Below the pieces are notes generated by a model, which saw nothing but the letters and a program-made list of their open reading frames with translations, was not told where the DNA came from and did not search any database. The position numbers and the translations under genes are program-made. A stretch of 64,000 nucleotides of DNA from Escherichia phage slur16: the sequence record NC_028248.1. One strand, 5' to 3'. Positions 5,303-63,697 of this stretch are shown piece after piece (position 1 is the first letter of the stretch; every line of letters starts with the position of its first letter).

Positions 5303-6214
5303 TTATTTTCCGTTAACTTTGTTGTAGTTTCCCTGCTCAGATGGGACTATGGTAGAAGGTCTTCCATATTCCTGATAATACCAATCCGCAGCAGATTGAG
5401 TAACACCGTTTTCATCCGTCCACATCATAGATTTGTAGGGCTGCCACTCTTCTGCGGCATTTGTTGATGCAGTGTCTGCAAATGCCCCTGTGTCCCTCTT
5501 GTTACCTACGTTACTGCCATTCTTACAGTCGTTGACAGCACCTTTTTGCTGGGTCTTGCCTACTTTCTTAGGGTTGCTGTATACAGTTGCATTAACAACC
5601 TTGTTCAAGTAGAATGTGCGGAACTCTGTAAGTTCTACATCAAACACCATCGCAGCACCTTCACCAACAGACTTGTTGGCAGAAAGGCTGGTTATGATGT
5701 AGTTCTCAAGGAGTCTCTCCTCGGTAACCAAAGAAACCAACTGGCGCTTATTAATGATCTCAGTCAAAGCCTCCAGTGCAGCGCCTGGTCGCATAGACGC
5801 TGCAGGGTTTTTAGAGTCAGTATTCCTGTCAATGTAGTTTTGCTCATAGATTATATGTGGTGATGTATTTACCCTACCAGTAAAAGAAAATACACCATCT
5901 TTAATTACAGCGTGGTCTGACAGGGTAGATTTATCTTCCACCGCAAACCCAGTCTTATCAACAGAATGTTTGAAAGAGTAATTCTCAACCTGATCGAAGA
6001 TGATGGCAAGATCGTTAGTAAAGTTTTTACCCTTCATCTCCGTATTGCGACCACCATAGTTAAGACCGCTGACAAACATAGTGTACTTTACATCGCTTTC
6101 AGTTTGCTGTTCTGCCTTTTCAGCCTTTGGAGATTTAACCTCTTGAGGCTTGTACAGGTCTTTTTCATCAACTATATTGCTTGGCATAACCTCTCCAGGA
6201 CACTCCGATACCAT
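5303..6214 (-). CDS. tail / baseplate hub protein
   Basis: 303 aa ORF immediately downstream of the tape measure gene. Confidence 0.4.
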   Translation of the reverse strand: MVSECPGEVMPSNIVDEKDLYKPQEVKSPKAEKAEQQTESDVKYTMFVSGLNYGGRNTEMKGKNFTNDLAIIFDQVENYSFKHSVDKTGFAVEDKSTLSDHAVIKDGVFSFTGRVNTSPHIIYEQNYIDRNTDSKNPAASMRPGAALEALTEIINKRQLVSLVTEERLLENYIITSLSANKSVGEGAAMVFDVELTEFRTFYLNKVVNATVYSNPKKVGKTQQKGAVNDCKNGSNVGNKRDTGAFADTASTNAAEEWQPYKSMMWTDENGVTQSAADWYYQEYGRPSTIVPSEQGNYNKVNGK

Positions 6215-33674: not shown

Positions 33675-34806
33675 AGAATATCCACTTATTGAGTCCATAG
33701 ATTGTCTGGCTGATCTTCTTGAACCTGACGCTATAGTTTATTATGACTTCGATCAGGTTGCATATCAAGCTGCAGCAAGTTGTGAAAAAAGGACAATTGA
33801 GGTAACACACAAAGCCTCCGGACGTAAGAAGATGTTTAAAACACGAACAGAGTTCTGGGGGCGGCAGAAGAACACCGTTGGTGGTTGGCTAAAAGCTGAG
33901 AATACCAACCGTGAAGCCGCATGTAAAAAGTCTGGTAAGGAGTTTATTCCGTGGACACGTGAAGATTTTGATGTCTTGGATATCCAAACACCTGACCCTG
34001 TAGAGAACTGCTTGCACACAATAAAATGTAAGGCAAATGCAGTTCTTAACTATCTTGGTATTCCGGAAGAGCGATGTGTCGGGGTGTTGGGAGGCACAGG
34101 TAACTTCAGACTAGATCTTCCAATGCCGGAAAGATACAAAGCCAACCGTAACAATACTCTTCGACCACTGCTGCTTGGAGATGCAAGACAGTATCTCCAA
34201 AAGCAGTATAATGCTCAAGTGATCAACGGTATCGAGGCTGATGACTGGTTAGCTATCCAGCAATTTGAAGGTTGGAACCACTACCAAAAAACAGGTAAGT
34301 TCAACAAGTTTATTATCTCTATTGATAAGGACCAAAGAACACTACCGGGGCTTGTGTTCGATCCCATGCGAAACGATAAGGGAGATTTTGTAAGGGAAAC
34401 CCCTATGCTGATCGATAACGGTATGGGGAACATCTTCATGAAGCCTAATGGAGAGGTTGGTGGTTACGGAATGCTGTTCTTCGGATACCAAATGCTGTGT
34501 GGTGACTCTGCTGACAACATCAAGCCGTATCAAGGACTTATCGGTAAGGGTAAGTTCGGAGATGCCTCAGCATTCTACCTACTGTCTCAGTGCAGCACTC
34601 CAAAGGAGATGTGGGTGGCTATTATTGATCAGTACAAGAAGTGGTTCCCGAAAGGTGTTGTTAAGTATACTGACTTCAATGGTATTGATCGTAGAATCTC
34701 CGTAGGTCAATGGATGAGTATAATTTTTGACTGTTTGTATATGAAGCGAACATTCAATGATCAAACAAAACTTGTTAACGTTCTTAGAAATGTTGGAGCA
34801 ATTTGA
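33667..34806 (+). CDS. 5'-3' exonuclease / flap endonuclease (T5 D15 / T4 RNase H family)
   Basis: Signature GIEADDWLA (FEN-family G-x-EADD metal site); 379 aa. Confidence 0.65.
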   Translation: MSREYPLIESIDCLADLLEPDAIVYYDFDQVAYQAAASCEKRTIEVTHKASGRKKMFKTRTEFWGRQKNTVGGWLKAENTNREAACKKSGKEFIPWTREDFDVLDIQTPDPVENCLHTIKCKANAVLNYLGIPEERCVGVLGGTGNFRLDLPMPERYKANRNNTLRPLLLGDARQYLQKQYNAQVINGIEADDWLAIQQFEGWNHYQKTGKFNKFIISIDKDQRTLPGLVFDPMRNDKGDFVRETPMLIDNGMGNIFMKPNGEVGGYGMLFFGYQMLCGDSADNIKPYQGLIGKGKFGDASAFYLLSQCSTPKEMWVAIIDQYKKWFPKGVVKYTDFNGIDRRISVGQWMSIIFDCLYMKRTFNDQTKLVNVLRNVGAI

Positions 34807-35138
34807 TGACTAAAAATTCTGTAGATAACGCAATTATGGAAGCTGTTTTTGAGGATGATCACACAACAGGGACACTTAAAACAAAAAATACATTCGTTGT
34901 TGCCACAGGTATGTGGCGGTTGTATGAAGATGACACCATTTCATACATCCTGTACACGGATGATTACGCAGATGACCGTGTATGGTCTGCTGTTTTAAAA
35001 GAGGATTGTGAGCTGATTGAGGGCGAGCGGTTATGCATGTTCACCAGTGTGGAAACAGATGTTAAGCTTTGCTCTCTCGTATTGTTCAAAGATAAGGCTT
35101 ATGCTCCTGATGAAGGAGAGGAGGATGAGGAAGCATGA
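34803..35138 (+). CDS. hypothetical acidic protein
   Basis: 111 aa; ATGA coupling both sides; C-terminus EGEEDEEA. Confidence 0.4.
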   Translation: MMTKNSVDNAIMEAVFEDDHTTGTLKTKNTFVVATGMWRLYEDDTISYILYTDDYADDRVWSAVLKEDCELIEGERLCMFTSVETDVKLCSLVLFKDKAYAPDEGEEDEEA

Positions 35139-45610: not shown

Positions 45611-45889
45611 ATGAGCTGTGAAAAATCTTTTTTCTTTATTATTTACGGTAAAGATAACTGCCCACATTGTGTAAGAGCAAAAGAATTTGCAGTCAGTAAA
45701 GGTCTGCCTTTTGTATATAAGACACTTGGCGAGGGTTACACAAAAGAAGAGCTTATTGAGAAGTGCAGTCCAATCGTACCCAGAACGTTGCCGCAGATCT
45801 TCTTAGAAAGCAATCTTGAAAGTGTCCATATAGGCGGTGCCGACGATTTCATCTCTTTTGTTAAGAATGGTTTTGGAGAGAAAAAGTGA
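45611..45889 (+). CDS. glutaredoxin / NrdH-like redoxin
   Basis: 92 aa with CPHC active site (YGKDNCPHCVRAKEF); between nrdB and nrdD. Confidence 0.7.
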   Translation: MSCEKSFFFIIYGKDNCPHCVRAKEFAVSKGLPFVYKTLGEGYTKEELIEKCSPIVPRTLPQIFLESNLESVHIGGADDFISFVKNGFGEKK

Positions 45890-46746
45890 AAGTTGTAAAA
45901 CGGGACGGTAGAGAAGAGGTCTATAACGGAATTAAGGTGATCAAGGCGGCAGAGTCCGCCTTACTTGAGTCTGGACATACTGAAGAAGAAGCTTACCGGA
46001 TCGCCTGTGCGGTTAATGAAGTTGTTGCTAACAATCTACCAACCGATCAGTGCACGATCTCTGTAAAAAATATCCATATCCTTGTTGAAGATGCTCTTAT
46101 GGATATGGGTTTAAAATGTGCAGCCAGAGAATACATCCAGTATAGGCAGACAAGAGATAATAACAGAGAGGCAGGTGGAAAACTGCTTGCAGATATTAGT
46201 GGCTTCTTGGATCGCACTTGTGATGAATTTACAAAAGAAAACGCAAATAAGCCTACCAATCATGTACACACTCATCGTGACCTGCTTGCAGGCATCCTTA
46301 GCAAACACCTTGCATCAACACAGATCCTGCCAGACCGTGTCTCAGAAGAGCACAATAAAGGCTTCATCCATGTGCATGATCTTGACTACTTGATCAGTCC
46401 GTTAACAAACTGTTGTTTGGTAAATTATCCAGATATGTTGGAAAACGGATTCAACATTGGCAACGCCCATGTCAGTAAGCCGAAGTCAATAGGGGTTGCA
46501 ACAACAATCCTTAGCCAAATCTCTAGTGCGGTAGCTAGTGCTCAATATGGTGGTCAGACTATGAGCCATATTGATCATTATCTGGCACAGTATGCTGAAG
46601 CAACCTATGAGAAGAACCTTAAATTTTGCCAGGAACATTGGTTGCCGGATGCTGAAACTGTTGCAATGCAAATGACAGATAAAGACGTATTTGACAGCAT
46701 GCAGACTTTGCTCTATCAAATCAATACGTTAACTTCTGTCAACGGT
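45886..46746 (+). CDS. nrdD: anaerobic ribonucleotide reductase, exon 1
   Basis: N-terminal ATP-cone-like start (MKVVKRDGREEVYNGIKV); frame ends in intron; 5' splice site approximate. Confidence 0.8.
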
Positions 46747-46749
46747 TAA

Positions 46750-47560
46750 CAAACTGGCCGTTGTAAAACTCTCCTAACCTCATAAGAGGGGTCGGTAAAT
46801 CCGGCTAACGGGGAACGCTAAGGCGAAAGCTATGCCAATCCCGTGACTAGTTCTTACAGGAGTTGGAACGGTTGTAACGACTAACGAAAGGCAGAGATGC
46901 TTGACAAACATTTCTGAACCAAGTAGTGTAGGGGTTAGTTGAAATACTAACTTCGAAATGGAGAGGCTCTATGAAAAAGATCATTCTTAATGGTGAAGAA
47001 TCAAACTATGTGATTGATGAAGTTGGAAACGTATACGGAAAACGTGGAATGCTGCACCCAATATTGTGGGGAGGTTATGGAAAAGGTAATAAGCATGTTA
47101 AACGCCGTTATATGTACTCTTTCAACCACAAAGGTAAAAAGATTCGAATCCAAACCTCAAGGGTTGTTGCCTTGTATTGTTTGCCAGATGTCCCAGAAGA
47201 CCCTGAAAACTGGGAAGTGAATCATAAAGATGGCAATACATTGAATGATCATCCGTCTAACCTAGAGTGGGTTTTGCCGGAAGATAATAAGAGACATGCT
47301 TTCCGAACAGGACTTTGTCCAGGTAAGTGCTATAGGAAAGTGCAGGCATACAAAGGGAAAATCTTGGTGGGTGAATATCCTTCACTCTACGCCTGTGCAA
47401 AAGCCTTAAATTTGAACGTAGGTAACGTTCACAGGGCTATCGAAGGAAATGCCGAAGGTAAGCATCTCACAATAAAGGGTTATTATCTTATTGAAGTAGA
47501 GTAAGAGATAGTCTGGCCCTGTGGAAACACAGGGAGGAGACAGCAGACTCCATTCATCAC
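46750..47560 (+). mobile_element. group I intron in nrdD carrying HNH homing endonuclease
   Basis: Q-like AATCCCGTGAC (46848-46858), R-like GTTGTAACGACTAACG (46871-46886), S-like AAGAGATAGTCTGG (47503-47516) flanking the HNH ORF; splits one nrdD reading frame. Confidence 0.8.
46971..47504 (+). CDS. HNH homing endonuclease (intron-encoded)
   Basis: 177 aa; HNH core EVNHKDGNTLNDHPSNLEWV; lies inside nrdD intron. Confidence 0.8.
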   Translation: MKKIILNGEESNYVIDEVGNVYGKRGMLHPILWGGYGKGNKHVKRRYMYSFNHKGKKIRIQTSRVVALYCLPDVPEDPENWEVNHKDGNTLNDHPSNLEWVLPEDNKRHAFRTGLCPGKCYRKVQAYKGKILVGEYPSLYACAKALNLNVGNVHRAIEGNAEGKHLTIKGYYLIEVE

Positions 47561-47561
47561 A

Positions 47562-48806
47562 TTGAGTTTAGGACTGGATACCTCGGTCTTTGGTAGAATG
47601 ATTACCAAAAACTACCTGAAAGTCCACAAAATGGGTCTTGGTGAAGAACGTATCACACCTGTGTTCCCTAAAGTGCTGTTCTTCCTGGAAGAGGGTGTCA
47701 ACATGAACCCTGGGGATCCTAACTATGATTTGAAACGATTAGCTCTGGAATGCTGTGCAGAACGTATCTATCCTGACTTCGTATCTGTACCACTAAATAG
47801 AAAAGTGACAGGCTCGACAGATGGCAAAGTAACTAGCATGGGTTGCAGGAGTTTTCTTAGCAAATACAATGACTTGGAAACAGGCGAGGAGAAATACCTT
47901 GGCAGATTTAACTTAGGCGTTGTTAGCCTTAACCTGCCAATGATTGCGGCAAAAGCCAAGACGGAAGGTGTTGATTTCTTTGCAGTTCTTGACGAATACT
48001 TGGATCTTGCATACGAGGCTCACCTTGTAAGGGTTAATCGTCTAAAAGGAACAAAGGCAGGGCAGAACCCCATCATGTGGTGTGAAGGCGCTCTTGCTCG
48101 CCTGGATCCTGAAGAGAGTATTGATAAACTCTTCTATGACGGGTACGCTTCCATCAGTATTGGGTATATCGGTGTGTATGAAACCTGTCAGATTTTGGGC
48201 AGAGAGGGTGACAAGGCTTTAGCTCTTGGAATCCTTCAGCACATGAGAGATGCTTGTGAGCGATACAAGAAGGAAAGTAGACTAGCATTTAGCTTGTACG
48301 GCACTCCTTCTGAGAGTCTATGCTATAAAGCTGCAACCTGTCTGGATCGTGAATATCCGGAAGTGTTGAAGCACGAGCATGAATATCTCACCAACAGTTT
48401 CCATCAGCCAGTATGGATAAATAGCTCTCCTTTTGATAAGTGGGAGTATGAGGAAGGTTTTGCTATAATCTCCTCTGGTGGCAACATCGGATACGTAGAA
48501 ACACCTAACCTGAAAAACAACCTGGATGCTTTAGAGGCTCTTGTTGACTTCGGGTATAAACACATTATGTATTTTGGTATTAACCAACCTGTGGATAAAT
48601 GTCTCAAGTGTGGTTTCTCTGGTGAGTTCAGTGCAACAGCTAAAGGCTTTGTATGCCCAGAGTGTGGAAACCATGAAGAGGGAACGATCAGTGTAATTCG
48701 ACGTGTGTCTGGATACCTTTCCAGTCCTAACTCCCGTCCTTACAATAAAGGTAAGCAAGCGGAAGTTATCGAGCGAGTTAAGCACTACGGAAGTTGTGGT
48801 TGCTGA
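47562..48806 (+). CDS. nrdD: anaerobic ribonucleotide reductase, exon 2
   Basis: GRFNLGVVSLNLP; C-terminal zinc ribbon CLKCGF...CPECG and glycyl-radical motif RRVSGYL; exon probably begins 10-40 nt upstream of the ORF-track TTG. Confidence 0.8.
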   Translation: MSLGLDTSVFGRMITKNYLKVHKMGLGEERITPVFPKVLFFLEEGVNMNPGDPNYDLKRLALECCAERIYPDFVSVPLNRKVTGSTDGKVTSMGCRSFLSKYNDLETGEEKYLGRFNLGVVSLNLPMIAAKAKTEGVDFFAVLDEYLDLAYEAHLVRVNRLKGTKAGQNPIMWCEGALARLDPEESIDKLFYDGYASISIGYIGVYETCQILGREGDKALALGILQHMRDACERYKKESRLAFSLYGTPSESLCYKAATCLDREYPEVLKHEHEYLTNSFHQPVWINSSPFDKWEYEEGFAIISSGGNIGYVETPNLKNNLDALEALVDFGYKHIMYFGINQPVDKCLKCGFSGEFSATAKGFVCPECGNHEEGTISVIRRVSGYLSSPNSRPYNKGKQAEVIERVKHYGSCGC

Positions 48807-53903: not shown

Positions 53904-54137
53904 ATGAAAGTTAAATTTCTTACAGATTTAGGGTACCCTTCCTTGGTTGACTGTGTTGGTAAAATTGTGGAAGCAAAACGGCTATCTGCAAACGAGAATG
54001 TTGTCCTGGTTAAAGGGAAGGATTTACTAGCTGCAGGTGCAGAGTCTGGCAGGATCTCTCCTGATTATATGTATTACCTATCTTTAAGTAATCTGCCAGA
54101 GCGAGGCGGTAAAGGCCTTGAAGTTGTGGAGGAGTGA
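53904..54137 (+). CDS. small protein, paralog family A
   Basis: MKVKFL...LVKGKDLLAAGA...LEVVEE; shares N-terminus, KG-DL-AAGA core and VVEE-type end with 57463, 57680 and others. Confidence 0.5.
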   Translation: MKVKFLTDLGYPSLVDCVGKIVEAKRLSANENVVLVKGKDLLAAGAESGRISPDYMYYLSLSNLPERGGKGLEVVEE

Positions 54138-54667
54138 CAGGTATGCTTCTGATTAACTGGGAAGACCTCTATGGGGACAAAGACCCTGTTGCGTTTGTTG
54201 ATCGTAGGTGGAGATACACTGAAGAACAACTGGCGGCAAAAAATTTAACTGCAAAACGCAGAAAGATCATCCAGTGCAAGTACAAATACGCACAGTTTGC
54301 TGCAAAAGTGTCTCCACAAATCGAGAGCTTTGTGCTTAAATTGTATGACGAGTACCTCAAATTCAAATTGGATTTTGTGCAGGTGTACCGTGCACAGGTA
54401 CGACCAGATACCAACATATGTAGATGGAAGGTTGTTTGTGAAGGTAAAGATTTGCCGCTCAGCTTGACAATTGAGTGGCGTTATGGGTATCATGAGTGTG
54501 GTCTGTATGATATTTGGGATGTCATTGTAGATCCTGCTAAGCATCTGAACACAGAGGAGCTGGAATATATCAATAAGGTTATTCTCGATATGTTTTTCAG
54601 CTACACACATGAAAACTCTGAGAAAGAACGGGATAATTTTCTTGACACCCTCAGCGACCATTTGTAG
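54134..54667 (+). CDS. hypothetical protein
   Basis: 177 aa ORF. Confidence 0.4.
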   Translation: MTGMLLINWEDLYGDKDPVAFVDRRWRYTEEQLAAKNLTAKRRKIIQCKYKYAQFAAKVSPQIESFVLKLYDEYLKFKLDFVQVYRAQVRPDTNICRWKVVCEGKDLPLSLTIEWRYGYHECGLYDIWDVIVDPAKHLNTEELEYINKVILDMFFSYTHENSEKERDNFLDTLSDHL

Positions 54668-54697
54668 TATACAATTTAACCTACAAAGGGAGGACCA

Positions 54698-54925
54698 ATG
54701 AGTATAAATGTTGTGCTAATAGGTTACCTGGTAATGTCCGTTATAACAGCGGTATTCTTGACAGGTGTATGCATCGTGTCCAGACGAAGGGTGAAGTTTG
54801 ATGATTTTATCACCATCATCACTGCTGCACCTTTTTGGCCTGTTGTTATCTTCATCGTAATAATGTGCCTAGTTGATTACTACAAGAATATCAGGAAGGA
54901 GAGTAGGGATGGAGACCGCACCTAA
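54698..54925 (+). CDS. small membrane protein with two predicted TM helices (holin-like topology)
   Basis: Hydrophobic stretches VVLIGYLVMSVITAVFLTGVCIV and ITIITAAPFWPVVIFIVIMCLV, charged C-terminus. Confidence 0.4.
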   Translation: MSINVVLIGYLVMSVITAVFLTGVCIVSRRRVKFDDFITIITAAPFWPVVIFIVIMCLVDYYKNIRKESRDGDRT

Positions 54926-55061
54926 AACTATCTATACTGTTCTTAAAGAGATTGCGTTCTACGCAGATCTTAGCCAGGCACCTTTATGGGAAAAGAGCAT
55001 GTATTTAAAATGGTGCGTTAATTTAGGGAGACCTTCCAGTGTTTCAAGCCATGTTTATTGA
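54909..55061 (+). CDS. hypothetical small protein
   Basis: ATG 54909 with AGGAAGGAGAG RBS; overlaps upstream gene end. Confidence 0.3.
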   Translation: METAPKTIYTVLKEIAFYADLSQAPLWEKSMYLKWCVNLGRPSSVSSHVY

Positions 55062-55144
55062 GATGCTATCTGGGATATTGTTACTGGTAGCCATCTTAGG
55101 TGGTGCAGTTCTGATGTATAACTATCTTGAAAAAGGAGACAGCA

Positions 55145-55330
55145 ATGGTAAAAAATAAATCTTTAGAGCAGGCTGAAAACCTTCTCCACGAGCTGGTAAA
55201 GGAGTGGAAAGTTGAATACTCAGATTTTAATGCACGAGAGGGTGAAGATTATTGGCCTACGGAGCGCTCAGAGGGCGAATGGTATCAAGATTTTATAGAG
55301 TGGTTATATCAGACGTGCGATGAGGGGTGA
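55145..55330 (+). CDS. hypothetical acidic protein
   Basis: Start at ATG 55145 with AGGAG RBS. Confidence 0.4.
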   Translation: MVKNKSLEQAENLLHELVKEWKVEYSDFNAREGEDYWPTERSEGEWYQDFIEWLYQTCDEG

Positions 55331-55797
55331 CGATGTTTGTTAAATATGTAAAAACGTGCCTCAACAGTCTTGGCAGAGAGCATTGGTACACCTTGCTTGA
55401 AAAAGGGGAAATTTTAACAAAATCTGGAAAGATAACTTTGATACCTCTTGATAGTAAAGGTAAAGACCCGTCACGACTTGTTATAGATGATTACGTTACA
55501 GGTGTGACGTTCGAGGTCTCTGTGGAGAGGTTAATACGCAGAACTGGCGGCCCTTATGACCGAAGAGAGTATGTTTTCGATTCCGTTACAGAGATGGGGG
55601 AGCATCCGTCTTTAATGTTCAGGATGGTAATCAGAGATATGAGGTCATCTATAGATAGGATCGTAAAGGACATTAAGGAACCTTTTAGAGTAAAAGTTAA
55701 GAAGTTTTTCGATTCTAAGATTAACATACTCGCCGTTGCACTAGGTGTAGTTCAACTTCTGTTAATTTTGCACTATTTTGAACTACTATTTAAGTAG
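55327..55797 (+). CDS. hypothetical protein with C-terminal TM segment
   Basis: 156 aa; C-terminal hydrophobic ILAVALGVVQLLLILHYFELLF. Confidence 0.4.
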   Translation: MTMFVKYVKTCLNSLGREHWYTLLEKGEILTKSGKITLIPLDSKGKDPSRLVIDDYVTGVTFEVSVERLIRRTGGPYDRREYVFDSVTEMGEHPSLMFRMVIRDMRSSIDRIVKDIKEPFRVKVKKFFDSKINILAVALGVVQLLLILHYFELLFK

Positions 55798-55859
55798 TAG
55801 TTGAGATATGGCACAAAGGATGTGCCATAGTGAAATAAACTAAGAAAGAGGTAGAGAGA

Positions 55860-56207
55860 ATGCCAAAGATTAAAACGTTATTACTGTGGGTAGCTGTTTT
55901 AGCTTTTATAGGGTACTGGACTTGGGAAACTGAATTAAAAGATATCGGATATACCAGTCTTGAGAGCAAGGCGTGCATTGGCATAACCGATGCGTTCAGG
56001 CAAAATGCTATGGATCACGAATGTGTTGATGCAGATATAGATGAGAAACTGTCTAAGGACAAAGATTTTTACCATGGGCATGCTTTACTTGATAGTGGTG
56101 ACACTGTAGAGTTCTGGTCGTGGTTTCGTGAAGATGGAACAATAAAAACAGCAGTAAAGATCTCTAACAAAGAGTTAATGCTGTTGCAGCAAAAGGAGGC
56201 TCAATGA
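55860..56207 (+). CDS. hypothetical protein with N-terminal signal/anchor
   Basis: N-terminus MPKIKTLLLWVAVLAFIGYWTW. Confidence 0.4.
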   Translation: MPKIKTLLLWVAVLAFIGYWTWETELKDIGYTSLESKACIGITDAFRQNAMDHECVDADIDEKLSKDKDFYHGHALLDSGDTVEFWSWFREDGTIKTAVKISNKELMLLQQKEAQ

Positions 56208-56491
56208 TCTGGATATCCTATGCTGATGGCACCATGCTGTATACTGCAGGTACCAGATATGAAGTTCAGGAGAACGATAAAAAATTTATCGTAAAAACAT
56301 TTGACAAGGACGACAACCTTTTGCTAGAATTGACTTACAAAGTTGGAGAGGTATCCAATATCCAGTTGGATTGTGGTCATAAAGATAATCCACTCAAAAA
56401 ACCTGGAGTAGGTAAGGCTTCAGAAGAACGTCTGTCTCGTATTGCAGAAAGCGTTTCTCCCCAAAAATCTAAGAAGAGGACTAGAAAATGA
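56204..56491 (+). CDS. hypothetical protein
   Basis: 95 aa, ATGA-coupled. Confidence 0.4.
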   Translation: MIWISYADGTMLYTAGTRYEVQENDKKFIVKTFDKDDNLLLELTYKVGEVSNIQLDCGHKDNPLKKPGVGKASEERLSRIAESVSPQKSKKRTRK

Positions 56492-56682
56492 AAAACTTAC
56501 GTTTTAACACTTATTACTACAACACATTGAATGATTTGTATTATATTGTTCGAAGTAAAAGTCCTGAAACAGTCCTATTCTGCCGCGAACCTTTCAAAGG
56601 GGAGGAAGTAGAGTCTGAGATGAATGTTAGCCAGATCACCTCTTTGTTGCTCTCAGGCGCAATGGAAGAAGCAATATTCTAA
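56488..56682 (+). CDS. hypothetical protein
   Basis: 64 aa, coupled. Confidence 0.35.
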   Translation: MKNLRFNTYYYNTLNDLYYIVRSKSPETVLFCREPFKGEEVESEMNVSQITSLLLSGAMEEAIF

Positions 56683-56700
56683 ACCAGGCAGGAGGGTTTT

Positions 56701-56889
56701 ATGAAGCACTATTGCCTGTCTGGTAGAATGGGTGCAGATTGTGATTGGGTTTTCTTAAAACTTGTCAGCATTCGAGAGTTCATCCCAGAGGAAGAGCAAG
56801 AAAGCGAGCTGATGTCATGGATCAACCATTACGGTAACACTTTTCGGCATGTTAAGGTAGAAGAGTTGCCAAGCGAGGCTGAATTATGA
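56701..56889 (+). CDS. hypothetical protein
   Basis: 62 aa. Confidence 0.35.
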   Translation: MKHYCLSGRMGADCDWVFLKLVSIREFIPEEEQESELMSWINHYGNTFRHVKVEELPSEAEL

Positions 56890-57182
56890 AACTTTTTGAG
56901 TGGTTTAAAAAGTTTAAATATAAAGCTGTAGCCATCGTGCCGTGGTCCATTCAGTGGGTTGATGAAGGTGGTCTACCGATACCTGGTGACAAAGATACTG
57001 GGTACTGGATTATGATGGAGAACGGGTTTGGAAAGCGAAAGTATACGTGCACAAACTCTACTCGATCTGCACTTAATAGAGTGCCTGGTTACAAACTTAT
57101 GGTTGTGTGGAAAATGTCAGGCGTGCCTCCAGCCAATGCTCAATTTCTTACTGACAATCCGACCACGGTAGAGGGAGATTGA
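56886..57182 (+). CDS. hypothetical protein
   Basis: 98 aa, coupled. Confidence 0.4.
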   Translation: MKLFEWFKKFKYKAVAIVPWSIQWVDEGGLPIPGDKDTGYWIMMENGFGKRKYTCTNSTRSALNRVPGYKLMVVWKMSGVPPANAQFLTDNPTTVEGD

Positions 57183-57466
57183 TAATGAAAAAGATTAACA
57201 GTAGTGAAGTAGAGTTTAAACTTGTCGGAAAAGGCACTTACTGGGAAGTTCGTCAAAAGGTATATTTGTTCGGTCTTATTCCCTACTGGTCTAAATTCTA
57301 CTGGGGAGCTAACGAGTTGGGAAGATACGCCACCAAATCAATGGCACTTATTGGTATAGCAGAGTACATTGCAGCCCGAGACAGGGTTGGAACCACTTAT
57401 TACTACACTGCTGACGATATTCGTAACAGTGTTTACGTCCCACAACCACCTGATGGAGACCGTTGA
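57179..57466 (+). CDS. hypothetical protein
   Basis: 95 aa, coupled. Confidence 0.4.
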   Translation: MIMKKINSSEVEFKLVGKGTYWEVRQKVYLFGLIPYWSKFYWGANELGRYATKSMALIGIAEYIAARDRVGTTYYYTADDIRNSVYVPQPPDGDR

Positions 57467-57690
57467 TGAAAGTTAAAGTTTTAGATTCAAGCTTCTATAT
57501 TGGTCAGGAGCCTTTAGTAGGAAAAGTGTTTACTGCTGTCCCTAACGAAGATTACCCTGACCTTTTAAAAATAAAAGGAGCAGATCTTATTGCCGCTGGT
57601 GCATCTCAGGAATGCTTTGACAGTCAGTGGACCTATAACTTTGCCCTAGGTGAGGATGTAGAGGTAGTGGAGGACGATCATGAAGGTTAA
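57463..57690 (+). CDS. small protein, paralog family A
   Basis: MMKVKVLDSSFYIGQEPLVGKV...IKGADLIAAGA...VEVVEDD. Confidence 0.5.
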   Translation: MMKVKVLDSSFYIGQEPLVGKVFTAVPNEDYPDLLKIKGADLIAAGASQECFDSQWTYNFALGEDVEVVEDDHEG

Positions 57691-57934
57691 AATTCTTGAT
57701 TCTAACGTCTACTTGGGACAATCCTTCCTGAATGGAAAGGTCGTTCCTGCGGTATACTTTGAAGGGTTGCCGTGGGATGATCCTGTGCGGCAACATCACA
57801 GTTATGTAGGCCACAACGTGGTGTTTATCTTGGGATCAGACCTGATCACCGCTGGTGCACCTGAATATTATTTCGGGGAAGAGTCCTACTATGCCTTTGG
57901 GGTAGGGTCAGATGCAGATATTGTAGAGCTGTGA
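57680..57934 (+). CDS. small protein, paralog family A
   Basis: MKVKILDSNVYLGQSFLNGKV...ILGSDLITAGA...IVEL. Confidence 0.5.
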   Translation: MKVKILDSNVYLGQSFLNGKVVPAVYFEGLPWDDPVRQHHSYVGHNVVFILGSDLITAGAPEYYFGEESYYAFGVGSDADIVEL

Positions 57935-57946
57935 TGGGTAACCGTT

Positions 57947-58345
57947 GTGAAAAATAAACTGTTTAAAGTTACAATGAAAATTCGCGGGGCTTGGAGCGTA
58001 AAGCAAGGGCGTATTCCAGAATTTGAGAAAGACTTCTACGTAGTCTCCACCTCGGAGGAGGCTGCATGCTGGCAGGCTGGCTATGCCTATGCAAGAACCT
58101 GGTACGAAGGATACCAGACTGGGGGCTATGACGGAGAAATTATCAGCAAGGGTGTAGAAGAAATTAATGTGTTGACAAGTGAAAAAGTTTTTGTTATAGT
58201 GCATCCAGATTCCAGAGTGAAGCATTACTGGAATGCCAGAACAAAAACTTGGACACCGTTTGCAGATTCTGCTACGCCACTTTTAAACCAGAAAGCTCTT
58301 GACTCTGCCCCAAGTTATGGGGTTGTTGAAGAAAAGCTAAACTGA
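57947..58345 (+). CDS. protein, paralog family B
   Basis: Shares FYVVSTSEEAA...HP...YW...WTP...ATPLL pattern with ORF 60157-60552. Confidence 0.5.
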   Translation: MKNKLFKVTMKIRGAWSVKQGRIPEFEKDFYVVSTSEEAACWQAGYAYARTWYEGYQTGGYDGEIISKGVEEINVLTSEKVFVIVHPDSRVKHYWNARTKTWTPFADSATPLLNQKALDSAPSYGVVEEKLN

Positions 58346-58362
58346 AACAGTGAGGTGTCACC

Positions 58363-58653
58363 ATGATGGATTTAATTCTAAATATTGATAACGCAGGAGA
58401 GTTTAAAGACGATGGTGTAACAAGCATGGACAAACCCTGCTCTGCTAAGGTTGACTCAAAATGGACCTACAAGTTTGACGGAGAGATCTTCGCAAATGAT
58501 GAGAAGGTTGTAGATGCTGCAGCCATTTTAAACGCTCTAGGGTACGACCCTGTGAATTCTTTGATCAAGGATCCTGTTGAGTTTGCAGAGTATGTTCGAA
58601 AAATGGCAGATCTTGCTGTGGATATTTTAAAAACTATCGACAACAAGCTGTAA
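58363..58653 (+). CDS. hypothetical protein
   Basis: 96 aa. Confidence 0.4.
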   Translation: MMDLILNIDNAGEFKDDGVTSMDKPCSAKVDSKWTYKFDGEIFANDEKVVDAAAILNALGYDPVNSLIKDPVEFAEYVRKMADLAVDILKTIDNKL

Positions 58654-58659
58654 AAACTG

Positions 58660-58688
58660 TTGACACAACGCTTCAGATTTAGTATCAT
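58660..58688 (+). promoter_or_regulatory. sigma70-like promoter upstream of HPF-like gene
   Basis: TTGACA (58660-58665), 17 nt spacer, TATCAT (58683-58688). Confidence 0.5.
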
Positions 58689-58737
58689 TGTTTTCAAAGA
58701 GAGATAGTTATTCCCTCTTCCTTAAAAGGAACACGTT

Positions 58738-59058
58738 ATGCAAATTGAAATCACTGGCAACAATGTAGAAATCACAGAAGGTATGGTATCTTTTATTTCC
58801 CGCAAAATGTCCAAGCTGGAGCGTTTACATCCCTCTGTTAACTATGCACGTGTGAGTGTAAAAGTTGAAAATGATCACCAGGAAGTTATGGCGTTCATTT
58901 TTGACAATTCTGGAAAAGAAGTTATTGCCAAGGCTAAAGGCAGTGATGCTTACGAGGCAACTGACCGTATGGTAGATGTTGCAGCACGTCAGCTGGCTAA
59001 ATGCGGTGGAAAGAAAGGTAAGGGGAAAGGCAAAGTAAAGATTGACTTTGGAGAATGA
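58738..59058 (+). CDS. hpf: ribosome hibernation promoting factor homolog (RaiA/HPF family) with Lys/Gly-rich C-terminal tail
   Basis: MQIEITGNNVEITEGM...KLERL...VSVKVE...GSDAYEATDRMVDVAARQLAK aligns with E. coli HPF MQLNITGNNVEITEAL...KLEQY...VVLKVE...GQDMYAAIDGLIDKLARQLTK. Confidence 0.75.
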   Translation: MQIEITGNNVEITEGMVSFISRKMSKLERLHPSVNYARVSVKVENDHQEVMAFIFDNSGKEVIAKAKGSDAYEATDRMVDVAARQLAKCGGKKGKGKGKVKIDFGE

Positions 59059-59195
59059 GGTGCTACAATGGGTGTGATTAAGAAATTAGTCCCAAATGTA
59101 GAGATTGCATGCTTTGAAATTATGTTTGCAATCGCAGTTGTAGTTAATGTGTTAGGTTACGGCTATTAATATCAAATAATTGAGGAGACCTCTAA

Positions 59196-59465
59196 ATGAA
59201 AATTAAATTATTCCAAACTGAGCTGGCAGACAAAAATTGTGGACTGGTTGAAGGCATGATTGTTGAAGCACAACCAGTGGACTATATGAAGGTGGTTCGT
59301 GATGCCCTAGGTGAAGGTTTTGATCTGATGGAGCCAGCTCTGCGAGAAGATGTTATCGAGATGGCTAAAAAGCACACACCTGAAGGTTTGGTGGTGTTTG
59401 TTGCACCGGGTAACGGAGAAGAGTTGATTGTAACTCCTGATGTGTATGAGATTGTAGAGGAATAA
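59196..59465 (+). CDS. small protein, paralog family A (divergent)
   Basis: MKIKLF...LVVFVAPGNGEELIVTPDVYEIVEE. Confidence 0.45.
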   Translation: MKIKLFQTELADKNCGLVEGMIVEAQPVDYMKVVRDALGEGFDLMEPALREDVIEMAKKHTPEGLVVFVAPGNGEELIVTPDVYEIVEE

Positions 59466-59556
59466 TCCTGCTTGGATTAGCATACTTCCTCGCTAAGGAA
59501 GATTTGTAATTATTTGTGGGAAAGGAGTCCCAATCTCTTACCAGAGGTGATACTAT

Positions 59557-59820
59557 ATGATTGTTTATTTTAAAACTTCAGGTGGATACCCTGATTCTCA
59601 AAGCTTGATCGGAAAAACGTGCACAGCATACTCACCTCTTGATGAGGAGGTAAGCGATATTTTACGAAATATGTATCGGATTGACCCCCAAGAAGCCTTT
59701 GATCAAAACCTTGTATTTGTCAAGGGCTCAGATATGAAGTCTTTGGGAGCATTCCCTGAAGCAGATGATGATGCCGTTTATTCGTTCATGACTCCTTTTG
59801 AAGCTATGGTTGTTGGGTGA
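59557..59820 (+). CDS. small protein, paralog family A
   Basis: YFKTSGGYPDSQSLIGK...LVFVKGSDMKSLGAFPE...MVVG. Confidence 0.45.
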   Translation: MIVYFKTSGGYPDSQSLIGKTCTAYSPLDEEVSDILRNMYRIDPQEAFDQNLVFVKGSDMKSLGAFPEADDDAVYSFMTPFEAMVVG

Positions 59821-59824
59821 TAAT

Positions 59825-60157
59825 ATGAAAGTACGCTTTATTGGTGAAACAATTCCTGTGCATCTCCGGTCGCCTGAGGATTCTGCAGATCTTGCATCTA
59901 AAAAGGCGAGAGGTTATGATAAGAAAGTAACCTCAACCGATGTAGTGCTTGAGGCTACTAGTCTACCTGACCCTGCTGCATTCTTTAATCATTATGGGTA
60001 CTATTTCAGCAATCTGATGAATATCGGTGAGCTTGTGTTTATTAGTGGTGGAGAAATTGTTAGCAAGCTTGGCGGCGATCCGGATGTCTTTCATGAAACC
60101 TGTCCTTTTGCATTTGTGGTGGGTTCAGATGTGGAAGTTATTGAGGAGGTGCGGTAA
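59825..60157 (+). CDS. small protein, paralog family A
   Basis: Start at ATG 59825 (MKVRFIGE...); FAFVVGSDVEVIEEVR terminus. Confidence 0.45.
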   Translation: MKVRFIGETIPVHLRSPEDSADLASKKARGYDKKVTSTDVVLEATSLPDPAAFFNHYGYYFSNLMNIGELVFISGGEIVSKLGGDPDVFHETCPFAFVVGSDVEVIEEVR

Positions 60158-60552
60158 TGGTAAGCCTATACCGTGTTGAGTATAGCTCAGATACTGTATA
60201 CAACGTAAGAAGCAAAGATCGCAGCGACAGAGTGCAAGAAATGTATGTTCTTGCCGACAGTCCGTTATCTGCAGCGTTCAAGGCAGGGGCTCTTGCATCT
60301 CGTTGGAAATTTGAAGGCGGATCTTTCTATGAAGAAACCCTTGAAGATTCTGTTGTTATTTCTTCTGTAGAGGTTTCAGATGACTACGAAGGGAAAAAGT
60401 TCGTAATGCGGCACCCACACAGCAACATTGCGTACTACTGGGATGTTCTGAACAACGAGTGGACCCCAGATCTTCAGAAGGCTACTGTGCTAACACCGTT
60501 TTTGGCAGATAAGTTCCCACCAGAAGGTAATTTATCCGCACTGTTTCAGTAA
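60157..60552 (+). CDS. protein, paralog family B
   Basis: Paralog of 57947-58345 (YVLADSPLSAA...HPHS...YW...WTPDLQKATVLTP). Confidence 0.5.
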   Translation: MVSLYRVEYSSDTVYNVRSKDRSDRVQEMYVLADSPLSAAFKAGALASRWKFEGGSFYEETLEDSVVISSVEVSDDYEGKKFVMRHPHSNIAYYWDVLNNEWTPDLQKATVLTPFLADKFPPEGNLSALFQ

Positions 60553-60628
60553 TTTTCTTGCACACAGGTGTTGACAACACCAACCCTGTGTGAAATAATA
60601 CCTTCATCTTAACAAGACGGGAGACTGA

Positions 60629-60889
60629 TTGATGAAGATTAAACTGAAAAACCTTGAAATGGCAGAGATTCAGGATGGTGTTGATTTCCGCTCTAAAGAT
60701 GGTGACATCTTGGAGGTAAATCTTCCAACCTACGAGCTGATTAAAGGTTTTGGCAACGTTCAGGAAGAGGATATTCCAGAAACTCTTATGATGTTGATTC
60801 TTGACGGAACTGTGTTTGTAGGTGAAGGTGAGAACGCTATTGCAATCCCAGGCCATTTTTATGAAGTAGTTGACGAAGAGGTGCTGTAA
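60629..60889 (+). CDS. small protein, paralog family A (divergent)
   Basis: MMKIKLKNL...VFVGEGENAIAIPGHFYEVVDEEVL. Confidence 0.4.
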   Translation: MMKIKLKNLEMAEIQDGVDFRSKDGDILEVNLPTYELIKGFGNVQEEDIPETLMMLILDGTVFVGEGENAIAIPGHFYEVVDEEVL

Positions 60890-61240
60890 ATGAAAGTAGA
60901 AATTACTGGTTTTGATGTTAGTGTGGTTCCGGAAGATATTTTAGCTAACTTACCGGAAGGTTTTGGTAACGGTGTTGTGGTGGATGCTGTTCCTCCTACC
61001 AAAGACATTCTGCTGCAGTATGGTGTAGCAGAGGAAGATGTCGATAAAGTTCTTACAATGATGGCAATCGATCGTGTTGTCGTTGTTAAAGGTCTCGATA
61101 ATTTTGAGAGTGATCCTCTGATTATTCGCGGAGATGACTACAAAATCATCGATAATGAAGGCCAAGAGTTCTATGAGCCTTGTGCAGAAGATATTCTTAA
61201 CTTATTACTGGAAGCAGGCACCGAAGAGGAGGACGAATAA
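60890..61240 (+). CDS. small acidic protein (family A-like)
   Basis: MKVEITGFDV...VVVVKGLDNFESD; acidic C-terminus. Confidence 0.4.
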   Translation: MKVEITGFDVSVVPEDILANLPEGFGNGVVVDAVPPTKDILLQYGVAEEDVDKVLTMMAIDRVVVVKGLDNFESDPLIIRGDDYKIIDNEGQEFYEPCAEDILNLLLEAGTEEEDE

Positions 61241-61569
61241 TGAAGATTGACCCGTTACTGAAGGCTCGTGCAGAAAAAGCGTACACCATTAAGCTGACCA
61301 ACCTGGTTCCTACTTGTCATCCAGATGTAGGTTGGCCCGAAGGTTTGGTGGAGGGAACTGTAACAGCTGCATACCTTCCTAACATCAAATACCTTATGGA
61401 AATCTTGGAGCTGGATGAGGAAACGGCAGAAGAGTTACAGTTGGACATGAAACAAAGTGGGACTCTGGTTATTCACGGGTGGTATAATACTAAAGATGCA
61501 GAAGACCCTCTGGTAACTTCTAATCTGGCATATGAAATCTTAGGACCTTTGAACCTGGAGGAAGACTAA
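61240..61569 (+). CDS. hypothetical protein
   Basis: 109 aa, ATGA-coupled. Confidence 0.4.
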   Translation: MKIDPLLKARAEKAYTIKLTNLVPTCHPDVGWPEGLVEGTVTAAYLPNIKYLMEILELDEETAEELQLDMKQSGTLVIHGWYNTKDAEDPLVTSNLAYEILGPLNLEED

Positions 61570-61856
61570 TGAAAGATTTGGTTAAGATTAAGATTAAAGA
61601 TACCAATGGAGAACTCAGCCATTTTGGAATTAAGGATGGTGACGAGCTGATCGCACACTTGCCTACTAAGGAGGTTGTAAGCAAAGCAGTTGCCGGAGAA
61701 GAAGCTGCAATGCAGGCTGCAGGTGTGGATGAAAACTATGTAGCTATGTGCATGTGCCGAGATCAGGTTGTTCTGTATAAAGCGTATCGACCAAACGGAG
61801 CCACGGAGTGGCTTGTATTCCGACCCGAAGGATATGAAATCTTAGAGGCACTATGA
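61569..61856 (+). CDS. hypothetical protein
   Basis: 95 aa, coupled. Confidence 0.4.
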   Translation: MKDLVKIKIKDTNGELSHFGIKDGDELIAHLPTKEVVSKAVAGEEAAMQAAGVDENYVAMCMCRDQVVLYKAYRPNGATEWLVFRPEGYEILEAL

Positions 61857-62364: not shown

Positions 62365-62616
62365 ATGACGAAGATTGACTTGAATGCTGGTGATCATGTT
62401 GTTGTCAAATGCATTGGAGATTATCTTGGATTCACAATCGGCAATACTTACGAGGCGGTAGTGGCGAAGGTTTATCATGATAAAGTCCTCAGTCTTGTAT
62501 TTGACTGCGATGATGATGGGGATGACCGATACGTCTGTGAGGTGCTGGCACGAGACGATAGTGAAGACCAGAAATTCCTGGTTATTGAACTGAACGGTAT
62601 TTTTGTAGAACGTTAA
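62365..62616 (+). CDS. hypothetical acidic protein
   Basis: Start at ATG 62365 with AAGGAG RBS 7 nt upstream. Confidence 0.4.
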   Translation: MTKIDLNAGDHVVVKCIGDYLGFTIGNTYEAVVAKVYHDKVLSLVFDCDDDGDDRYVCEVLARDDSEDQKFLVIELNGIFVER

Positions 62617-63338: not shown

Positions 63339-63646
63339 GGTGGATTATGTCTACAAAGGCGGCTAAATACTCCTATATGCCATCAACCTCTGCAGAGGTA
63401 GACTTTAGTTTCGATGTGTTTCCACTGTTTGAGGTGGTTCTGGCATACCCAACAATACTATCTACTCCTGAATCACTTGTGCCTGTTAAGTTGCAGAACG
63501 CTATGCATTCCATGCACTACAACAACAAATGTAGGCACAGATGGTGTCAGGACGAGGAAAAAGATTTGGATAGTTTGAGAGATTTTGACAGTCACCTTTT
63601 GACACCTTTCAGCTACTCCAACCTTGATAAGCCCTCGTGGGTATAG
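63335..63646 (+). CDS. hypothetical protein
   Basis: 103 aa, ATGA-coupled; followed by terminator. Confidence 0.4.
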   Translation: MRWIMSTKAAKYSYMPSTSAEVDFSFDVFPLFEVVLAYPTILSTPESLVPVKLQNAMHSMHYNNKCRHRWCQDEEKDLDSLRDFDSHLLTPFSYSNLDKPSWV

Positions 63647-63670: not shown

Positions 63671-63697
63671 AGGACGCTCTGTGGCGTCCTTTTCTTT
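63671..63697 (+). terminator. rho-independent terminator
   Basis: AGGACGC-TCTGTG-GCGTCCT hairpin then TTTCTTT. Confidence 0.6.

Follow-up and report, generated by a model that had tools for sequence, protein, structure and literature searches.

Positions 53904-61240 of the stretch analyzed here (64,000 nucleotides of Escherichia phage slur16, NC_028248.1; hereafter, the window) hold a dense series of small genes on the + strand. The present analysis concerns this series, within which we delineate three paralogous gene families, denoted A, B, and C, and the published transposon-insertion data that bear on the function of their members. The region is 100% identical to the corresponding part of Escherichia phage slur12 (LN881735.1; Vequintavirus, rV5-like), in which the record position equals 68875 minus the window position by exact string match, and, with only 2 exceptions, at least 90% identical across the 120 phage records matched. 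The annotation of slur12 places 24 + strand coding sequences in the region and that of phage Murica 25. Of the 23 junctions between them, 13 are overlaps or gaps of at most 10 nucleotides, including, on direct reading, ATGA, TGATG and TAATG overlaps and one 11-nt overlap, with Shine-Dalgarno sequences of the GGAG type. The approximately 25 closely joined, same-strand open reading frames (ORFs) reported in a preliminary description of this DNA are thus borne out by the annotation.

The same-strand array as a whole extends from about 52.9 to 63.65 kb, the above region being one part of it, and most of its genes are annotated as 'hypothetical'. Located 5' of the array are genes of nucleotide metabolism, genes resembling PhoH and ClpP, and a methyltransferase gene. 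In the rV5 genome paper, the array makes up the distal part of a transcription unit denoted "genes 82-163"; promoters of the sigma-70 type are predicted there throughout, and paralogs are nowhere mentioned. The unit that ends in the array also carries nucleotide-metabolism genes. A later preprint locates the physical terminal-repeat region in the ~2.5 kb non-coding gap just past the array, and therefore transcription of the array runs toward the physical end of the genome. Sigma-70-like consensus matches are found in the intergenic gaps of the array and, as sequence matches, would be consistent with transcription by the host RNA polymerase; a search of the literature for a transcriptome of rV5-like phages found none. 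The early region invoked in the preliminary description is, for this array, a presumption. The genes g31-g26 (55333-57182) are missing from phage Bas54/MaxBurger, in which g25 directly follows g32, so that even near-identical phages differ in the content of the array. No changes within it are reported in the Aionostat evolution study.

Three paralogous families in the array

All-against-all BLASTP comparison of the 108 annotated proteins of the window linked g24 to g23 (E=8e-14), g22 to g15 (E=3e-7, with a full-length identity of 28-31%), and g36 to g24 (E=4e-6), and yielded a second cluster that consists of g14, g13 and g11 (E=3e-3 to 8e-2). Iterated hidden Markov model (HMM) searches, run with a shuffled decoy database of 20x size, converge on five genes in family A (g36, g24, g23, g17, g16) and on five in family C (g18, g14, g13, g12, g11), with g22 and g15 making up family B. 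Moreover, when the complete genome (136.9 kb) was scanned with the HMMs in all six frames, exactly 5 A, 5 C and 2 B genes were recovered, all of them inside the array. All the family members described below are on the + strand.

Family A opens with g36 (77 amino acids (aa), 53904..54137), which is recovered by HMM search, BLASTP and the PHROGs scan alike. The next two members adjoin each other: g24 (74 aa, isoelectric point (pI) 4.1, 57466..57690, the start used here being 57466 instead of the 57463 of the preliminary description) and g23 (84 aa, 57680..57934), which overlaps g24 by 11 nt and carries a loop insertion. The last two are g17 (87 aa, 59557..59820), also with a loop insertion, and g16 (110 aa, 59825..60157), which has the longest loop insertion and starts 4 nt past g17. 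The A profile recovers the family members at E-values from 1e-5 to 1e-42 (3.7e-7 for g17 and 1e-5 for g16), with the top shuffled decoys reaching only E about 1. The members share the signature MKVKLL-GGY-G-..-VGKVV-A-..-I-G-ELI-AGA-..-Y-F-G-E-EVIEE, and all five lineages link to generic family members from outside Vequintavirus with an hhalign probability of at least 96% (96% for g17).

Family C consists of g18 (89 aa, pI 4.3, 59196..59465), g14 (85 aa, pI 4.1, 60632..60889), g13 (116 aa, net charge -22, 60890..61240; phmmer E=7e-5 against g14), g12 (109 aa, 61240..61569) and g11 (95 aa, 61569..61856). A profile built from g14, g13 and g11 retrieves g18 at E=4e-5 and g12 at E=1.6e-4, with the top decoy at 0.2. 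The preliminary description had placed g18 and g14 (there starting at 59196 and 60629) in a seven-member family A on account of a shared N-terminus, a KG-DL-AAGA core and an acidic C-terminus. Five of the seven assignments hold; these two genes resemble A only in the MK(I/V)K start and in an acidic end, YE(I/V)VEE, lack the core, and reach no better than E 0.5 with the A profile. The paralogy reported there is real, but the families are three, not two, and the feature does not end at 61240, as family C continues through g12 and g11, both beyond the coordinates given earlier, to 61856. In 9 of the 10 A and C proteins, the pI is 4.0-4.9.

The two family B genes, g22 (132 aa from the GTG at 57947, 57947..58345; the slur12 annotation starts the gene at the ATG at 57974) and g15 (131 aa, 60157..60552, with a TAATG overlap with g16), are unrelated to A and C and have motifs of their own, FYV-A..P.SA..K.G...RWKFEG and GKKF..RHP.S..AYYWD....W. 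Their paralogy, already recognized in the preliminary description, extends over the full length and is reflected in their joint membership in phrog_7379.

In PHROGs, g36, g24 and g23 (and, weakly, g17) match phrog_5009, g17 matches phrog_13920 and g16 matches phrog_13661; for the three family C genes covered by the scan (g18, g14 and g13), the matches are phrog_11868, phrog_12359 and phrog_12155. All these groups, including that of family B, are labelled 'unknown function'. Thus, PHROGs, like our analysis, co-clusters three A genes and both B genes, but splits A over three groups and the three scanned C genes over three more, and holds no record of a link between the split groups, of a fold, of gene order or of a phenotype. 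In Pfam, no family was matched at E<=1 by any A member, the C members yielded noise only, and neither A nor C members matched the curated SH3, SH3b or KOW models; across the A, B and C members, their fusion relatives and the neighboring array genes, Pfam scans returned only the HPF family and a weak methyltransferase signal. A search of the B profile against Protein Data Bank (PDB) sequences with hmmsearch likewise gave noise only.

Predicted folds of families A and C

AlphaFold2 models are confident for both families. For the A alignment (g24), the model has a predicted local distance difference test score (pLDDT) of 91.1, a predicted template-modelling score (pTM) of 0.78, and consists of five strands and one short helix. 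For the C alignment (g14; pLDDT 86.9, pTM 0.74), the strand order is the same, strands 2 and 3 being separated by an insertion of two helices. Structure searches with both models return SH3-like small beta-barrels as the top domains, and the five-strand topology of the models matches that of Spt5/NusG KOW domains, PsaE, the retroviral integrase C-terminal domain, and classical and bacterial SH3 domains. By these confident predictions, both families belong to the fold class of SH3-like small beta-barrels, a modeled answer to the proposal of the preliminary description that a shared fold be sought by structure prediction. Furthermore, Foldseek comparison with viral models gives full-length matches (template-modelling scores of 0.7-0.87) to uncharacterized proteins of 65-90 aa, including proteins of phages RB49, Merlin, Sf20 and CS01.

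Among the family A proteins, length varies at one site only, the strand 2-3 loop, which accommodates from 0 to ~47 extra residues. Judging from the strand order, this insertion hot-spot of A and C appears to match the position of the n-Src loop, the specificity loop of classical SH3 domains. Homology between A and C at the sequence level is suggestive only: the hhalign comparison yields a local P of 3e-4 (0.22 for the reversed control) and a probability of 39%, and is confined to the first 28 residues.

Gene order and divergent relatives

Written out gene by gene, the order of the families along the array is ...A...........AAB...CAABCCCC....., with an A-A pair directly before each of the two B genes. 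We denote g24(A)-g23(A)-g22(B) block 1 and g17(A)-g16(A)-g15(B) block 2. The placement of both B genes after A-A pairs has a permutation P of about 9e-5, in agreement with the earlier observation that B genes follow runs of A genes, and adjacency of members of the same family is enriched as well (P=0.002).

The further proposal that the two blocks are a duplicated module fares less well. The A-A-B order does occur twice; however, the positional partners of the two blocks are not mutual closest relatives. The hhalign scores single out g24-g23, neighbors in block 1, as the closest pair by a wide margin (95), and the corresponding pair in block 2, g17-g16, scores 16; across the blocks, only g23-g16 stands out (50), with g23-g17 at 33, g24-g17 at 30 and g24-g16 at 23. 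At the DNA level, no repeat was detected between the A-A-B blocks beyond a 30-nt motif common to g24 and g23. In the two divergent relatives denoted L016 and L018 (29-89% aa identity), the unit g18(C)-g17(A)-g16(A)-g15(B) is retained, along with the C run in L016. By contrast, the slot of g22 is taken in both by an unrelated protein of ~100 aa, and g23 is shrunk to a 44-aa remnant in L016. With block 2 kept and the B slot of block 1 replaced, block 2 is a stable unit and block 1 is turning over. Given the non-positional pairing and the replaced g22 slot, a simple one-step duplication of an A-A-B module was rejected as unproven.

Distribution and selection

Word-indexed searches of 5.8 billion proteins produced 35 clusters for family A, 54 for C and 6 for B, nearly all of them on ~135 kb contigs. 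By tblastn, B and C are found in 116-117 phage records, every one Vequintavirus, so that at this sensitivity these two families appear to be restricted to the genus. An exhaustive HMMER search with the A profile against 1.84 billion representatives gave 45 matches at E<=1e-3, ~30 of which are new full-length proteins of 63-87 aa with a clear common signature. One generic member of family A matches 176 phage records, including Krischvirus (RB49-like), a Proteus podophage, and Morganella, Klebsiella, Vibrio and Iodobacter phages. Another (P0031, with 309 member sequences) is closest to g36, itself nearest to the prophage-type members (hhalign score 112 against the prophage group), and lies in lambdoid E. 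coli prophages (L006-L008) in the small-gene block between the antiterminator Q and holin genes, the zone where lambdoid phages carry morons; B and C genes are absent from these prophages. The replication module of a 42.5 kb phage is yet another setting. Family A also occurs as tandem two- and three-copy fusions and as fusions to C-terminal regions (P0106, 136 aa; P0107, 264 aa; P0127; P0130; P0118), and the fusion partners in P0107, P0127, P0130 and P0118 have no recognizable domain and no Pfam match; the contigs that carry the fusions are too short to reveal a gene context. Thus, family A is a sparse yet widespread phage family, found singly in T-even-like, podo-, sipho- and lambdoid phages, with expansion, to ten copies when A and C are taken together, in Vequintavirus only.

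Two observations from these searches should be mentioned separately. A metagenomic protein of 98 aa (P0086) is a chimera, with an unrelated N-terminal half that matches Pfam DUF7399 and a C-terminal half identical to that of g12; it was set aside as uninformative and apparently reflects recombination inside a family C gene. In addition, 18 of the matching records are labelled 'Campylobacter phage', most with Campylobacter jejuni as the host, and those listed are 99-99.5% identical; the host label of these records looks doubtful.

All 12 ORFs are intact in the four Vequintavirus genomes compared, and the ratio of nonsynonymous to synonymous substitution rates (dN/dS), where substitutions suffice, is 0.04-0.36, which points to purifying selection on all 12 genes within the genus. 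In 104 of the 117 Vequintavirus records, the protein encoded by g15 is conserved at 99% aa identity or more; with its counterparts in L016 and L018, it shares 39-40%. In the comparison with these two relatives, g15 (39-40%) and g13 (29%) have diverged about as much as g6 (34%), a gene further downstream in the array, and most of the neighbors show 60-89%. The family genes are more diverged than the remaining array genes in L016 (median identity 48% versus 64%, P=0.014); the same comparison is not significant in L018. The earlier characterization of the paralogs as diversified is apt between paralogs and between genera; within the genus, it is purifying selection that acts on the genes.

Short proteins that match nothing in Pfam and are mostly annotated as 'hypothetical' might be a product of small-ORF calling, with similarities that are compositional. 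We consider this explanation extremely improbable: the profile scores for A and C are far above those of shuffled decoys, full-length relatives are encoded in unrelated phages, the folds are predicted with confidence, dN/dS is below 1 with ORFs intact across genomes, and transposon insertions in these genes yield phenotypes.

Transposon-insertion phenotypes of the orthologs in Bas54

A recent preprint describes HIDEN-SEQ, transposon-insertion sequencing (Tn-seq) of phage Bas54 (MaxBurger, MZ501093) (10.1101/2025.11.20.689424). We mapped Bas54 gene by gene to the genes of the window and read the values given here from the supplementary tables of the preprint. On E. coli K-12, every tabulated ortholog of an A, B or C gene is classed as "Non-essential" or "Intermediate" (10.1101/2025.11.20.689424). 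The sheet "resampling_K-12_vs_CFE311", in which CFE311 is a uropathogenic E. coli, contains 27 genes with an adjusted p below 0.05, and the three genes of block 2 are among them: mean reads fall from 108.3 on K-12 to 0.0 on CFE311 for bas54_0150 (g15; log2 fold change (log2FC) -6.77), from 71.0 to 0.0 for bas54_0151 (g16; -6.17), and from 142.2 to 0.0 for bas54_0152 (g17; -7.16), each with an adjusted p of about 0. The other B gene, bas54_0157 (g22), is depleted about 4-fold (255.9 to 57.4; log2FC -2.14; adjusted p about 0). The changes in the remaining family members are not significant: bas54_0153 (g18; 142.2 to 19.8, log2FC -2.78), bas54_0158 (g23; 188.5 to 153.5, -0.30), bas54_0159 (g24; 176.4 to 348.2, +0.98), and bas54_0166 (g36; 374.3 to 618.8, +0.72). 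The C genes bas54_0146, 0147, 0148 and 0149 (g11, g12, g13 and g14, respectively) show no depletion on CFE311 (log2FC -0.04 to +0.40).

The authors of the preprint pursued only bas54_0063 (MoxR) and bas54_0140, both needed against DS-28 of CFE311, and validated bas54_0140 experimentally as an anti-DS-28 gene with a clean knock-out; 0150-0152 and 0157 go unmentioned in the text (10.1101/2025.11.20.689424). By gene mapping, the ortholog of bas54_0140 (log2FC -5.48) is g6 (63347..63646, +), which lies in the same array 1.5 kb downstream, outside the three families, and is followed by a terminator-like hairpin at 63671-63690. Like g15-g17 and g22, bas54_0140 is a small gene of the same phage group and the same array, and one and the same experiment shows it to be dispensable on K-12 but required on CFE311. 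Unlike them, bas54_0140 has no sequence relationship to A, B or C, and its target is known from a clean knock-out, whereas for g15-g17 and g22 the requirement is seen in Tn-seq on the whole strain CFE311. The suggestion of the preliminary description that the array is a host-takeover or anti-defence gene set accordingly receives indirect but substantial support from the Bas54 comparison of K-12 with CFE311 and from the presence of the validated g6.

Two further observations concern the same data set. Small hypothetical genes across the terminal-repeat region, beyond the 3' end of the window (bas54_0123-0134), are depleted on CFE311 as well (log2FC -2 to -5), and therefore both arrays that flank the terminus carry host-specific genes. 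In supplementary file 9 (sheets S6 and S7), the CFE303 sheet has the CFE311 numbers in every row compared; one of the two sheets is probably a duplication error, and the CFE303 results were not used.

A candidate host-specific infection factor

The explanation that we favor, with a probability of roughly 0.6 for the whole of it, is that the array is a dispensable block of accessory genes with three lineage-expanded families of small cytoplasmic proteins. A and C are acidic single-domain proteins of ~75-115 aa, predicted to be SH3-like beta-barrels, and B is an unrelated protein of ~130 aa. The predicted barrels have a single hypervariable site, the loop between strands 2 and 3, with 0 to ~47 extra residues in the case of A and with a hairpin of helices in that of C. 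The tightly coupled g17(A)-g16(A)-g15(B), helped by g22, would constitute a host-specific infection factor, unneeded on K-12 and required on CFE311. We infer a counter-defence role, in which the barrels act as small binding or decoy modules, presumably of proteins, in a complex with the B protein, and together with it neutralize a barrier specific to the host strain, for which an immune system is the most plausible candidate. The other A genes (g36, g24 and g23) and the C genes could be diverged copies aimed at targets absent from both tested hosts. More tentatively, g17-g16-g15 might be a three-component counter-defence module directed against an immune system of CFE311, with the family A barrel and its hypervariable loop serving as a widespread inhibitor or decoy scaffold.

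Alternatively, the acidic barrels could be general modulators of host takeover or physiology that bind the ribosome, RNA polymerase, nucleoid or proteases, in which case the need for them on CFE311 would reflect the physiology of that strain. We regard this as unlikely: K-12 can be infected in the full absence of a need for these genes, their requirement on CFE311 is all-or-none and specific to the strain, no match to KOW or any other Pfam family at E<=1 was obtained, and the neighboring g6 is a validated anti-defence gene.

The transposon of HIDEN-SEQ carries no terminator, and its authors argue against widespread polar effects (10.1101/2025.11.20.689424), a view with which the neutral insertions in g23, directly 5' of g22, agree; nevertheless, the junctions of g17, g16 and g15 are 4-nt and overlapping, and polarity on g15 is possible within this tightly coupled group. 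It can be argued that only B (g15, with g22) functions in the CFE311 phenotype, that the depletion of g17 and g16 is an artefact of polarity or translational coupling, and that the A and C genes are unrelated passengers, either factors of inter-phage competition or superinfection exclusion or weakly selected duplicates. This version draws on the fact that the depletion in block 1 is confined to the B gene, with g24 and g23 undepleted, and on the conservation of g15, the highest in the genus among the three members surveyed by tblastn (the others being g24 and g18). It seems to us quite unlikely, given that the neutrality of insertions in g23 shows polarity not to be general, that an A-A pair precedes B in both blocks and the C-A-A-B order is kept in divergent relatives, and that the dN/dS of the A genes is in the range of 0.04-0.36.

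Small, fast-evolving accessory or anti-defence genes of phages that are gathered in arrays are a well-known general kind. Such modules of large virulent phages, for instance that for host takeover in Bacillus phage SPO1 and the clusters of small genes in T-even phages, are likewise dense, same-strand and made up mostly of non-essential small genes with host-type promoters, and some of their genes inhibit host functions or defences. Unlike these modules, the array described here is transcribed toward, not away from, the physical end of the genome; and to our knowledge, no expansion of a single barrel scaffold to ten copies across two families has been described for them. The genes in question have so far been known only as hypothetical proteins and PHROG clusters, and our literature searches found no description of these paralogs, of the three-family structure, the fold or the conserved C-A-A-B unit, or of a link to the CFE311 phenotype.

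The rV5-like phages are candidates for broad-host-range therapy and biocontrol, and roughly two thirds of their genes lack a known function. Here, 12 "hypothetical" genes resolve into three defined families, with predicted folds for A and C, and existing, undiscussed Tn-seq data mark a compact operon, g17-g16-g15, along with g22, as a host-range determinant on a clinical isolate. These findings offer a testable path to a new phage-host interaction, possibly to a new family of anti-defence proteins and the cognate immune system, and present a natural case of a small scaffold that diversifies through duplication and loop insertion.

Other features of the array and its surroundings

Between the two blocks, outside all three families, lies g20 (58738..59058, +), a homolog of the HPF/RaiA ribosome hibernation factors (Pfam PF02482, 56.7 bits against a cutoff of 23.7), in which insertions are tolerated on both K-12 and CFE311. 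A strong match to the sigma-70-like promoter consensus is located 5' of this gene (58660-58688). The gap between g18 and g17 contains a terminator-like hairpin, read from the sequence (59485..59501, +), and the gap between g15 and g14 another putative promoter (TTGACA-17-AATAAT with a TG extension, 60571..60599, +), known from its consensus match. In L016, a Phage_P22_Y8K6 gene (PF27050, at 5731-6027) stands between the orthologs of g15 and g14, the position that corresponds to the promoter-bearing gap of the window (60553-60631).

The product of g31 (55333-55797) is annotated as a 'virion structural protein' in Murica and apparently as an 'HNH homing endonuclease' in bov22_2; Pfam gives nothing for it at E<=0.1. 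Weak full-length similarity (phmmer E=0.002; BLASTP 30% over 70 aa) connects g9 (62365-62616) with g67 (34806-35138), possibly another pair of paralogs that would tie the array to a gene 27 kb upstream. Finally, the annotation of nrdD, the gene for the anaerobic ribonucleotide reductase (45886-48806), consists of two pieces separated by a 177-aa ORF. In Bas54, the annotated nrdD coding sequence is a join that encloses a homing endonuclease, an arrangement suggestive of an intron or an intein-like interruption of nrdD.

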